Shown: piece by piece, positions 23,704 to 29,286 of the stretch
Layout: the number at the start of each line of letters is the position of its first letter
Numbering within the stretch: position 1 is the first letter of the stretch
Source: Candidatus Poribacteria bacterium
GTDB taxonomy: Bacteria; Poribacteria; WGA-4E; WGA-3G
Reading direction: 5' to 3'
DNA length: 64,000 nucleotides
Assembly: GCA_965214095.1 (NCBI GenBank)
Contig: OZ243938.1
Coordinates: 416,001-480,000 of the forward strand
Notes under the pieces: model-generated
Database searches by the model: none
Told to the model about the DNA's origin: nothing
What the model saw: only the letters and a program-made list of their open reading frames with translations
Translations under genes and position numbers: made by a program

Positions 23704-23867
23704 TTTTGTTTAGTCTTTGATAAGATATATTCATATTATTGCATGATATGTATTGTAAGTCAATACAAGAGTATGTAAAGTCAGGATTATTTAGGTTTCG
23801 GTATTTCTTGTGTTTTTTTACAAATGCTAAATGCTCCAAGTCGGTAGGTTCGGTTTCCTAACCGAAC

Positions 23868-24038
23868 CATGGGCGTCAATTTAGTGTAAATTAGGCGTTT
23901 TCCCCAGACTGGTAGGTTCGGTTTCCTAACCGAACCGGATCCTACGCGAGAACCTCTATGAAGGTATTTGGCACAAAGCCGGTTCGGTTTCCTAACCGAA
24001 CCTACCAGCCCTGGAAGGACGCTAAACTGACACCTATG
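23868..24038. mobile_element. Non-autonomous IS231-like MITE carrying two REP hairpins
   Basis: Ends CATGGGCGTCAATTTA / TAAACTGACACCTATG resemble the IRs of the IS at 27699-29186; left end abuts REP GTTCGGTTTCCTAACCGAAC. Confidence 0.75.
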
Positions 24039-24105
24039 GTTTCGTTCCTCAACCCAACCGAAGTGGCAATTGAATTAATCTATCAAACTCACGTTAACAA
24101 ATAAG

Positions 24106-27599: not shown

Positions 27600-27698
27600 T
27601 GCAATATAATGTTGTGGGGTGGTTCTACACCATTCCACATAGATTTAGTGTAAATTAGGCGTTTCCCCAGGACGGTAGGTTCGGTTTCCTAACCGAAC

Positions 27699-29186
27699 CA
27701 TAGGCGTCAATTTAAGGATGCACCAAGACCGATAAGTGTCAACTTTTAATCAGAGAAAGTATAAATTATGAAATAAAACTTCTGTAAAAATGAAAACACC
27801 TCATATATAATGTAGATATAGATTTATTATGGTCTACAAAGAGGTGTTTCCTAATGAATACATTATCACAAGTTCCCAAAGAAATGCAACATATTCTTAC
27901 AACTATAGCCAATGATGCAGCTCTCAATACAGGTTTTGTCAAAAGAAGTTGTAAACTCAACGGTAGTCGTTTTGCTCAAATACTCATTTGGACTTGGTTA
28001 GAAAACCCAGATGCCACCTATACACAACTTGCGCAAACCGCTGGTGTGCTGGGGATTTCAATCTCACGACAAGCCATTGAACAACGATTTACATCTGAAG
28101 CAGCAGAGACCCTGAAAGTTATCCTTGATGCTACTGCGTCCAAGGTTATTTCTGCCGACCCGCAAACGCTTCCGCTCCTTGAAAAGTTCACTGGTGTCTA
28201 TTTACAAGATAGTTCTTGGATTACACTCCCTGATGTGCTCCACGAAACTTGGGAAGGTGGAAGCAAAAAGAATAAACCGAACACAGCTGCCGTGAAACTC
28301 CACCTGCGTTTTGATAGTGCCACAGGCACTTTTGAACACTTTGAACTGACCAATGGTATCACCGCTGATAGTGCTATTGAAAAGCAGATTGACATGCTAC
28401 CCGCCGGCAGTTTGCGCCTCGCAGACCTCGGCTATTATTCACTTGATACCTTCAAAAGACTTTCCGATGCAAACGTCTTTTGGATATCACGCTACAAAGT
28501 CCAGTGTTTTCTCTATGATGAAACAGGTGCCCCTTTTTGTTTGCTAAAATGGCTCAAGAAGGGTTCTAATAACTTCAAGGACAAACAAATCTTTATAGGT
28601 AAAAACAAGCGTCTCAAAGCACGATTAGTTGTTCAAAGACTTTCAGAAACAGAAACCCAACAGCGTATTAAGGAGATAAAACATCGTGCAAAGCGGAAGT
28701 ATACGAAACCTTCACCCAAACGACTTCAGCTCGCAAGATGGAATATCTACATTACTAATATAAAAGTAGACCATCTGACTGCTGAACAGATTTGTGCTGT
28801 CGCACGCATCCGATGGCAGGTTGAGTTGATGTTCAAGTGCTTCAAAAGCATTGGAAAAGTTGATACCTCCCGTAGCGACAAGCCATATAGAATCTTATGT
28901 GAGTTATATGCAAAACTCATCGTCGCAATTATGCGGCACTGGATCATGTTAAGGGTCGGTTGGCGATGTCTAAAACATAGTCTAACAAAAACAGCAGAAC
29001 TTATTAGCACCTTCGCACGCACACTTGCAATAGGTTTCCGCAAGTCTATAATGTCTTTTCGGCAAACTTTTGATGAAATAAAACACGCTTTCCAAAATGG
29101 GTGCTACATTGAGAGACGTGCTAATAGAGACACAACATTAGAACACCTTGAAAATGCAGCAAAAAATCACTAAATTGACGCTTATG
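27699..29186 (+). mobile_element. IS4-family insertion sequence (IS231-like CAT...ATG ends), 1488 bp
   Basis: IRL CATAGGCGTCAATTTA and IRR TAAATTGACGCTTATG (15/16 match); flanked by 20-bp direct repeats 27679-27698 and 29187-29206. Confidence 0.92.
27854..29173 (+). CDS. IS4-family DDE transposase
   Basis: LQDSS (D), LADLGYY (D), RIRWQVELMFK (YREK-like, E). Confidence 0.93.
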   Translation: MNTLSQVPKEMQHILTTIANDAALNTGFVKRSCKLNGSRFAQILIWTWLENPDATYTQLAQTAGVLGISISRQAIEQRFTSEAAETLKVILDATASKVISADPQTLPLLEKFTGVYLQDSSWITLPDVLHETWEGGSKKNKPNTAAVKLHLRFDSATGTFEHFELTNGITADSAIEKQIDMLPAGSLRLADLGYYSLDTFKRLSDANVFWISRYKVQCFLYDETGAPFCLLKWLKKGSNNFKDKQIFIGKNKRLKARLVVQRLSETETQQRIKEIKHRAKRKYTKPSPKRLQLARWNIYITNIKVDHLTAEQICAVARIRWQVELMFKCFKSIGKVDTSRSDKPYRILCELYAKLIVAIMRHWIMLRVGWRCLKHSLTKTAELISTFARTLAIGFRKSIMSFRQTFDEIKHAFQNGCYIERRANRDTTLEHLENAAKNH

Positions 29187-29286
29187 GTTCGGTTTCCTAA
29201 CCGAACCTACCGGTACTGGAAGGACGCTAAATTGACGCTTATGGGTGGTTCTACACCATCCCACATAGATTTAGGATAAGCAGGCT

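Follow-up and report, generated by a model that had tools for sequence, protein, structure and literature searches.

A poribacterial insertion sequence of the IS4 family flanked by 20-bp duplications that copy a REP hairpin whole

How much target DNA an insertion sequence (IS) duplicates counts as a hallmark of its family and reflects how the strand-transfer complex is built. In the IS4 family, where a duplication of about one helical turn has been named such a hallmark, the subgroups duplicate 7-13 bp, and in the IS231 subgroup the direct repeats are 10-12 bp (De Palmenaer et al., 2008, PMC2266710, Table 1; this paper, PMC12288879 and Tobes and Pareja, 2006, PMC1525189, are cited throughout from excerpts). 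Here we describe an IS of 1488 bp in a 64,000-nucleotide stretch of a Candidatus Poribacteria genome (GenBank assembly GCA_965214095.1, contig OZ243938.1, positions 416,001 to 480,000; hereafter, the window). The element encodes an IS4-family transposase and lies between two identical 20-bp repetitive extragenic palindromes (REPs). The 20-bp repeat is a genuine duplication of target DNA, and the REP is the preferred target, duplicated whole. The original prediction for this locus, an IS231-like element flanked by a 20-bp direct repeat that is an entire REP hairpin, was borne out base for base; inspection of the window at base level included the GGTAG that precedes the left REP (27674-27678) and the CTACC that follows the right one (29207-29211).

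[quoted passage not shown] It differs in the length of the duplication (19-20 bp rather than 10-12 bp) and in its hosts, which are Poribacteria and Chloroflexota rather than Bacillus. Its size falls within the subgroup range of 1450-5400 bp, while its identity to subgroup members is far below the >50% shared by many subgroup pairs (PMC2266710). Duplications much longer than one helical turn are known from IS1634 and IS1549, where they range from 8 to 514 bp and vary among copies (PMC2266710); those elements belong to a different family, IS1634, and the duplication described here is fixed at 19-20 bp.

REP-specific ISs occur in the IS3, IS110, IS4, IS256 and IS5 families, and in the excerpted text the type 1 cases all split the REP (Tobes and Pareja, 2006). 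The IS4-family case there is ISRm22, an element of Sinorhizobium meliloti, all copies of which lie at one fixed REP position, the symmetry axis, with a 6-bp repeat. Our element likewise combines an IS4-family transposase with a fixed position in a palindromic REP. However, ISRm22 splits the REP into two fragments and, as described in that excerpt, is always found in REPs, whereas here the whole 20-bp REP is duplicated and left intact on both sides. The distribution also departs from a type 1 association, with 10 of 13 copies in a REP, always in the same phase, and three elsewhere. IS1397/ISKpn1 and ISPsy8 (IS3) and IS621, ISPpu9, ISPpu10 and ISPa11 (IS110) also prefer REPs, at a fixed insertion base (PMC1525189; PMC12288879), but they belong to families with other chemistry, duplicate 0, 2 or 3 bp, and interrupt the REP. 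The original prediction had named IS3 and IS110 as families of REP-targeting ISs, to which the published IS4-family case of ISRm22 should be added (PMC1525189). What differs from the known cases is the doubled, fixed duplication and the survival of the REP intact in two copies. Our literature searches, which did not cover ISfinder, found no 20-bp duplication in IS4-type elements, and a search on repeats and transposases of Poribacteria gave nothing on topic by title or abstract.

A target duplication of 20 bp

The window IS is intact. The two REP 20-mers beside it are identical at 20/20 positions, including the asymmetric TCCT loop, and its terminal inverted repeats (CATAGGCGTCAATTTA and TAAATTGACGCTTATG) match at 15 of 16. 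The genome (5.2 Mb; main contig, C1, 41% G+C) holds 13 full-length copies at 98.3-100% identity, and the flank tabulation that the original prediction had proposed as a check gave perfect 20-bp direct repeats at all 13, outside both the 7-13 bp of the IS4 family and the 10-12 bp of IS231. Ten of the copies lie exactly within a REP, with the stem variants GTTCGG, GTGCGG and GTGAGG. Because REP-like 20-mers (540 copies) cover 0.21% of the chromosome, ten exactly phased insertions out of 13 are beyond chance. The other three copies lie in ordinary non-palindromic DNA, at the targets GGTATGATTATATAACGCAC, GAGAGCATTAGCATATTCAC and GTGTTGATGTGCCTAGTACC.

Sites without the element show where the repeat comes from. 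In same-genus genomes, the flanks of the three non-REP copies overlap by exactly 20 bp at 8/8 empty orthologous loci, which carry the 20-mer once and no insert. No orthologous single-REP empty allele was found for the REP-located copies when the flanks of three of them were searched in five same-genus genomes; these relatives lack the whole repeat-rich spacer, REPs included. Because the relatives are without intergenic repeats at those loci, paralogous sites were used instead. Sites with identical 25-nt flanks leave a 20-nt gap, one REP, in 81, 78, 27, 16, 16 and 4 cases for six IS copies. The single 20-mer at empty orthologous loci, together with the single REP at paralogous sites, means that the 20-bp duplication is made by the element, and that at a REP it amounts to the whole hairpin. 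Two outcomes had been named as speaking against the original prediction, 10-12 bp repeats at non-palindromic sites and two REPs in empty alleles; the repeats at those sites are 20 bp, and the paralogous empty sites hold one REP.

The duplication is shared with a MITE partner. End motifs in the genome (86 left, 82 right) form 53 pairs, which comprise the 13 full ISs, 35 pairs of MITE size, most of about 171 bp, and five nested pairs with no direct repeat. Among the MITE-size pairs, 17 have a 20-bp repeat (11 in REPs, six not), two a 19-bp repeat and one a 21-bp repeat. The common MITE of 171 bp is built as end, arm, REP, 46-bp spacer, REP, arm, end, and has only the terminal 16-17 bp in common with the IS. 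Both the shared ends and the duplication length are those of an autonomous IS with a MITE partner.

Two other origins of the flanking REPs have to be weighed. The REPs could belong to the element as extended terminal inverted repeats instead of being target DNA, and in the window copy the end symmetry does extend outward through the palindromic REP and GGTAG/CTACC. This idea is refuted by the three copies that lack a REP at either end, with their empty orthologous sites. Moreover, REP stems vary among copies (the three variants given above) while the ISs are at least 98.3% identical, the loops at both ends are direct, not inverted, and one REP remains at paralogous sites without the IS; we regard it as almost certainly wrong. 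The original prediction had offered another alternative, that nothing was duplicated at the window copy and that the IS replaced the 46-bp spacer between two REPs already present in a 171-bp MITE. A typical MITE does have two REPs, the sole paralog found with the same arms reads REP, spacer, REP (gap 86), and GGTAG on the left with CTACC on the right is a context seen in 1 of 540 single REPs. For the IS family this alternative is rejected, given the one-REP paralogous empty sites and the 20-bp repeats of the other copies (12/12, with orthologous or paralogous empty sites for nine of these). For the window copy we consider it very unlikely. No mechanism for swapping a spacer for an IS is known, and the flanking REPs agree at 20/20 with loop orientation included, whereas, by our count, most two-REP MITEs have opposite loops and three the same. 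Single-REP MITE variants exist as possible targets (C1:2393403, C1:5032857), and an identical structure would result if the IS entered a single REP and the 20-bp direct repeats then underwent slippage. The history of the window copy is in this respect ambiguous.

Family placement and reach among relatives

The 439-amino-acid transposase, the only ORF of the IS, matches Pfam DDE_Tnp_1 (PF01609) at E 1.9e-22 and the NCBIfam IS4 model transpos_IS4_1 at 195.4 bits (cut-off 115), while the NCBIfam IS1634 model gives 28.7 bits against a cut-off of 100. Its stop codon lies within the right end of the IS. The catalytic spacing (72 residues for D119-D191 and 133 for D191-E324, invariant in 20/20 aligned relatives) falls within the IS4 pattern D(60~110)D(100~150)E, and of the family motif Y(2)R(3)E(6)K (both PMC2266710) the REK part is present, with R320, E324 and K331 invariant in all 20. 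The tyrosine position, residue 317, is A here and A in ten, V in seven, T in one and Y in two of the relatives. The tyrosine is kept in IS231B and in a Chlorohelix relative, and because the latter nevertheless duplicates 20 bp, the long duplication is not set by its loss. The terminal sequence CATAGGCGTCAATTTAAGGA, with CAT at 1-3, AA at 11-12 and TAA at 15-17, fits the IS231-subgroup consensus CAT-------AA--TAA--- (PMC2266710, Table 1). The annotated transposase of IS231B is colinear with that of the window, at 27% identity over 390 amino acids (E 1e-44).

An AlphaFold2 model built on 20 relatives (mean predicted local distance difference test score 75.6) has the Tn5 transposase as its best solved-structure match (E 1.2e-9, template modelling score 0.48); a sequence search of PDB chains gave no match at E up to 1. 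To our knowledge, the Tn5/IS50 transposase provides the only solved structures of the IS4 family. The catalytic DDE triad is the same and the predicted fold comes closest to it, but Tn5 duplicates 9 bp.

To follow the duplication among relatives, a profile of 20 of them was used to retrieve 427 related stretches from one-genome-per-species collections, of which the best 80 were kept, all titled Candidatus Poribacteria. With the ends fixed at CAT...ATG, the direct repeat is 20 bp at 17 of the best 80 loci, 19 bp at 30 and 18 bp at two. The motif leaves the ends of 12 loci unmatched; six of these have an 18-bp repeat with boundaries one base further out on each side, which reads as 20 bp under common boundaries. 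Non-REP targets occur among the relatives as well (L003, L033, L041, L048, L052, L053, L068). Repeats of 18-21 bp extend from poribacterial relatives at 48-90% amino acid identity to two from Chloroflexota at 34-35%. The latter, on plasmids, are the best annotated relatives; the Chlorohelix plasmid copy has a perfect 20-bp repeat and the Herpetosiphon copy one of 19-21 bp, depending on the end base. Bacillus IS231-type transposases come next, at 27-28% identity. In Clostridium relatives (26-27% identity) a direct repeat was callable in 0/3, the inverted symmetry extending past the ends tried. From comparison of these sequences, a duplication of about 20 bp is a trait of the clade.

We conclude that the IS is a member of the IS4 family, and that it is nearest to the IS231 subgroup while forming a separate clade of Poribacteria and Chloroflexota, given the 27% identity to IS231B and the poribacterial titles of all 80 loci, set against the >50% identity of many subgroup pairs and their Bacillus cereus-group hosts. 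The IS231-like IS4 transposase of the original prediction is upheld by Pfam, NCBIfam, the end consensus and the identity to IS231B. Because same-genus genomes hold few copies, divergent copies or none (seven copies at 93%, one copy at 87%, fragments, or nothing), the 13 near-identical copies look like a recent burst.

Target choice and proposed mechanism

Ten of the 13 IS copies and the one-REP paralogous sites agree with the original view that the REP is both targeted and duplicated, and target choice depends on sequence. When the non-REP targets are symmetrised (nine sites, 18 half-sites), G occupies position 1 in 15/18, T position 2 in 10/18, and G or T position 3 in 17/18, a preference equal to the outer triplet of the REP. 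REP hairpins with the triplet GTT abut an IS or MITE end in 40 of 293 cases and those with GTG in 14 of 102. The corresponding counts are 0/132 for GCG hairpins (Fisher p = 1.4e-7 against GTT and GTG together, 54/395) and 1/101 for ATG hairpins (p = 5.3e-5 against the same set). The spared variants have the same hairpin architecture, loop and GGTAG context, with other stems, and location does not explain the escape of the ATG hairpins, since GTT hairpins at a distance of 22 bp from them do receive insertions. Because stem variants are spared and the non-REP targets are no more centrally palindromic than random and only weakly more foldable, sequence readout by a symmetric transposase dimer is favoured over pure hairpin recognition.

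The joint best explanation, which we consider probable, is a recently active IS4-family cut-and-paste element with a stagger of about 20 bp at a dyad-symmetric site, for which the REP is the best match. The transposase would attach the two ends of the element to phosphates of the target offset by about 20 bp, or roughly two turns of the helix, and gap repair would leave a duplication of 19-20 bp whatever the target. The preferred site would start with G-T-(G/T) and end with (A/C)-A-C, its best match in this genome being the local 20-bp REP, GT(T/G)CGGTT-N4-AACCG(A/C)AC. Because strand transfer would fall exactly at both outer edges of the palindrome, the REP would be copied whole on both sides and left unbroken. 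The 171-bp MITE, with the same ends, would be mobilised by the same enzyme, and its cargo of two REPs would give rise to nested insertions, the window copy among them. We infer cut-and-paste chemistry, a B-form rather than cruciform target, and protein contacts that set the 20-bp spacing. The 19-20 bp might represent the 9-10 bp usual in the family plus one helical turn, in which case the attacked phosphates would keep their rotational phase but, barring a bent or extruded target, be separated by about 35 Å more.

Several observations weigh against this account. No transposition event has been observed, and all of the evidence is comparative. A direct repeat is absent at 19 of the best 80 loci of the relatives and from 15 of the 35 MITE pairs, which we attribute, without proof, to decay or recombination between copies. 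The counts of abutting REPs are paired, not independent, although halved counts still give p = 4e-4 for the GCG class. Of 6209 GTK-N14-MAC sites in the genome 395 are REPs, yet 10/13 IS copies lie in REPs (p = 2.6e-10); because the end triplets alone fail to explain this preference, either further parts of the REP sequence or its structure must contribute. Within one relative genome, the duplication made by the same IS is 20 bp where the palindrome has 20 nt and 19 bp where it has 19 nt (L060-62 versus L063; L027, L034-36 versus L028, L031), a tracking that a cruciform model predicts naturally and a flexible B-form model merely tolerates. Finally, two of 12 non-REP targets are strong hairpins.

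Some of these points bear on a role for structure, which the original prediction had made the determinant of targeting. The transposase could recognise the REP extruded as a hairpin or cruciform and join the element ends at the bases of the two hairpins, such that the duplication is the hairpin length. This would account for a duplication that is the whole palindrome and symmetric about its centre, for the 19/20 tracking and for the REP preference beyond the terminal triplets, and it fits the landing of the outer MITE of the window (described below) in a terminator-like hairpin and of one other insertion in a strong non-REP hairpin. Nevertheless, the same 20-bp duplication is made in non-REP DNA by three IS copies and at least six MITEs (one MITE site, C1:3668732, being a degenerate REP), and the centred palindromy of non-REP targets is not above random (3.33 versus 3.28 paired positions, p = 0.39). 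Their excess of folding energy is weak (p = 0.036, n = 12; p = 0.19 once the two strong hairpins are left out). As counted above, hairpins that share the architecture and GGTAG context but have other stems are spared, and at L016 a palindrome of 19 nt carries a duplication of 20 bp. The original claim is weakened by the duplications in non-palindromic DNA and by the spared stem variants. Structure is a possible contributor, but we think it unlikely to be the main determinant, and prefer sequence readout at a dyad-symmetric site.

A broader possibility, which we hold to be less likely than not, is that the transpososome of this clade captures its target in a way undescribed for DDE transposases, either as two helical turns of straight DNA or as a cruciform joined at the hairpin bases. 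The cruciform option would account for the tracking of palindrome length (19 or 20) by duplication length. As a separate observation, 9/10 REP-located copies have the REP oriented with its GGTAG side (loop TCCT) upstream of the transposase gene (binomial p = 0.02), an orientation bias not obviously shared by relatives in other genomes.

The window copy, the MITEs and the REP population

The features of the window are collected in Table 1.

Table 1. Coordinates of the insertion sequence, the elements around it and a neighbouring MITE within the window
Feature	Position	Strand	Remarks
Insertion sequence	27699..29186	+	1488 bp; 1 of 13 genomic copies, at least 98.3% identical
Left terminal inverted repeat CATAGGCGTCAATTTA	27699..27714	+	fits IS231-subgroup end consensus (PMC2266710, Table 1, from excerpts)
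Right terminal inverted repeat TAAATTGACGCTTATG	29171..29186	+	holds transposase stop codon
Transposase gene, 439 amino acids	27854..29173	+	D119, D191, E324, R320 and K331 invariant in 20/20 aligned relatives
Left 20-bp REP palindrome GTTCGGTTTCCTAACCGAAC, target-site duplication of the IS	27679..27698	.	flank comparison, paralogous sites
Right 20-bp REP palindrome GTTCGGTTTCCTAACCGAAC, target-site duplication of the IS	29187..29206	.	flank comparison, paralogous sites
Left arm of outer MITE-like element hosting the IS	27638..27678	+	terminal repeat 6 bases short (CATAG^ATTTAG)
Right arm of outer MITE-like element	29207..29243	+	ends in intact IS-type end TAAATTGACGCTTATG
Left 20-bp duplication of outer element GGTGGTTCTACACCATTCCA	27618..27637	.	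flank and ortholog comparison
Right 20-bp duplication of outer element GGTGGTTCTACACCATCCCA	29244..29263	.	present once, uninterrupted, in both closest relatives
171-bp MITE with IS-type terminal repeats	23868..24038	+	end, arm, REP, 46-bp spacer, REP, arm, end
REP abutting left end of 171-bp MITE	23848..23867	.	phase same as at the IS

A feature that the original prediction had overlooked is that the window IS is nested in a MITE-like element, larger than itself and with ends of a similar type, where it sits between arm-REP and REP-arm and the spacer is missing. A separate 20-bp duplication, with one mismatch between its two copies, flanks the outer element. Of 11 aligned same-genus loci, the two closest (95-96% identity) have a spacer of 61-62 bp that carries the outer 20-mer once, without MITE, REP or IS. 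Because none of the 11 orthologous loci carries a REP (or a MITE; 0/11), it was the MITE that brought the REPs to this locus, and the IS inserted afterwards. The shortened left end of the outer MITE has the same sequence as the native flank CATAGATTTAG next to the right duplication, which extends the apparent direct repeat to 31 bp (27618-27648, 29244-29274) and could reflect gene conversion or an aberrant event. The loss of six bases should immobilise the outer element.

The 171-bp MITE at 23868 begins, as originally noted, at the same base of the same REP as the IS. Its right flank (24039-24058) matches the REP at 14/20 positions, so that this MITE has no proper direct repeat; the unlike flanks probably result from recombination between copies. 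The sequence to its right (24039-24063) resembles not the REP but a second palindromic repeat family (GGTTTCGT.CCT..ACC.AACC), into which related ISs of other Poribacteria usually insert, as one MITE has done here (C1:2932150). At two places (C1:4990821-4991128 and 1562320-1562559), a complete MITE is preceded by a tandem run of left halves, in which the unit of end, arm and REP occurs two or three times; the arrangement resembles nested insertion of MITEs into their own REP with subsequent deletions.

How far does the system account for the REPs themselves? Of the 540 REP-like hairpins on the chromosome, 68 are directly adjacent to an IS or MITE end and 61 are carried within MITEs as cargo; 125 belong to either class, and 175 are within 80 bp of any such end. 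Doublets number 73 with a 22-bp spacer and 124 with a spacer of 45-48 bp, and most REPs lie in doublets unrelated to the IS. The original suggestion that duplication amplifies REPs therefore holds marginally (68/540 and 125/540), but not as the main route. The broad picture of REP spread is unchanged, the IS/MITE system being linked to at most about a quarter of REPs.

Other repeats of the genome were noted in passing. The 73 doublets with a 22-bp spacer belong to an element of about 130 bp (for example at C1 224445, 526705 and 550452), which reads TATAGTAAAAA...GGTAG, GTT-type REP, 22-bp spacer, ATG-type REP, CTACC...TCACTATA and hosts two IS copies, always in the GTT-type REP. In 132 REP hairpins (for example at C1 100731, 335433 and 339400) the stem is fully compensatory (GCGAGGTT...AACCTCGC) with loop and GGTAG signature unchanged; none abuts an IS or MITE end. 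A REP-associated tyrosine transposase (RAYT) partner was sought among the five Y1_Tnp matches in the genome, none of which has a pair of REPs within 600 bp; beside one of them there is a single REP-like hairpin. Four of the five are copies of a 1.3-kb IS encoding a Y1 (IS200/IS605-type) transposase of 141 amino acids (C1:80823-82776 and three other places), and one of these is adjacent to a 100-bp repeat that occurs about 90 times in the genome. A further contig, C2 (32 kb), has 64% G+C against the 41% of the main chromosome, holds no REP copies and may be foreign to the genome bin.

These elements show a route by which an IS can exploit REPs without inactivating them, and they explain the nested mosaics of IS, MITE and REP in these genomes. 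If the target is captured in a way undescribed for DDE transposases, the less likely possibility raised above, the IS and a MITE that carries its own preferred landing pad would together form a self-reinforcing system of IS, MITE and REP, in which hairpins are copied intact and not destroyed. There is also a warning for annotation, in that searches for repeats of 9-12 bp misplace the ends of these elements. Given that IS4-family duplications otherwise span about one helical turn (PMC2266710), a clade with duplications of 19-20 bp and an otherwise Tn5-like enzyme offers a natural experiment on what sets the spacing of strand transfer.

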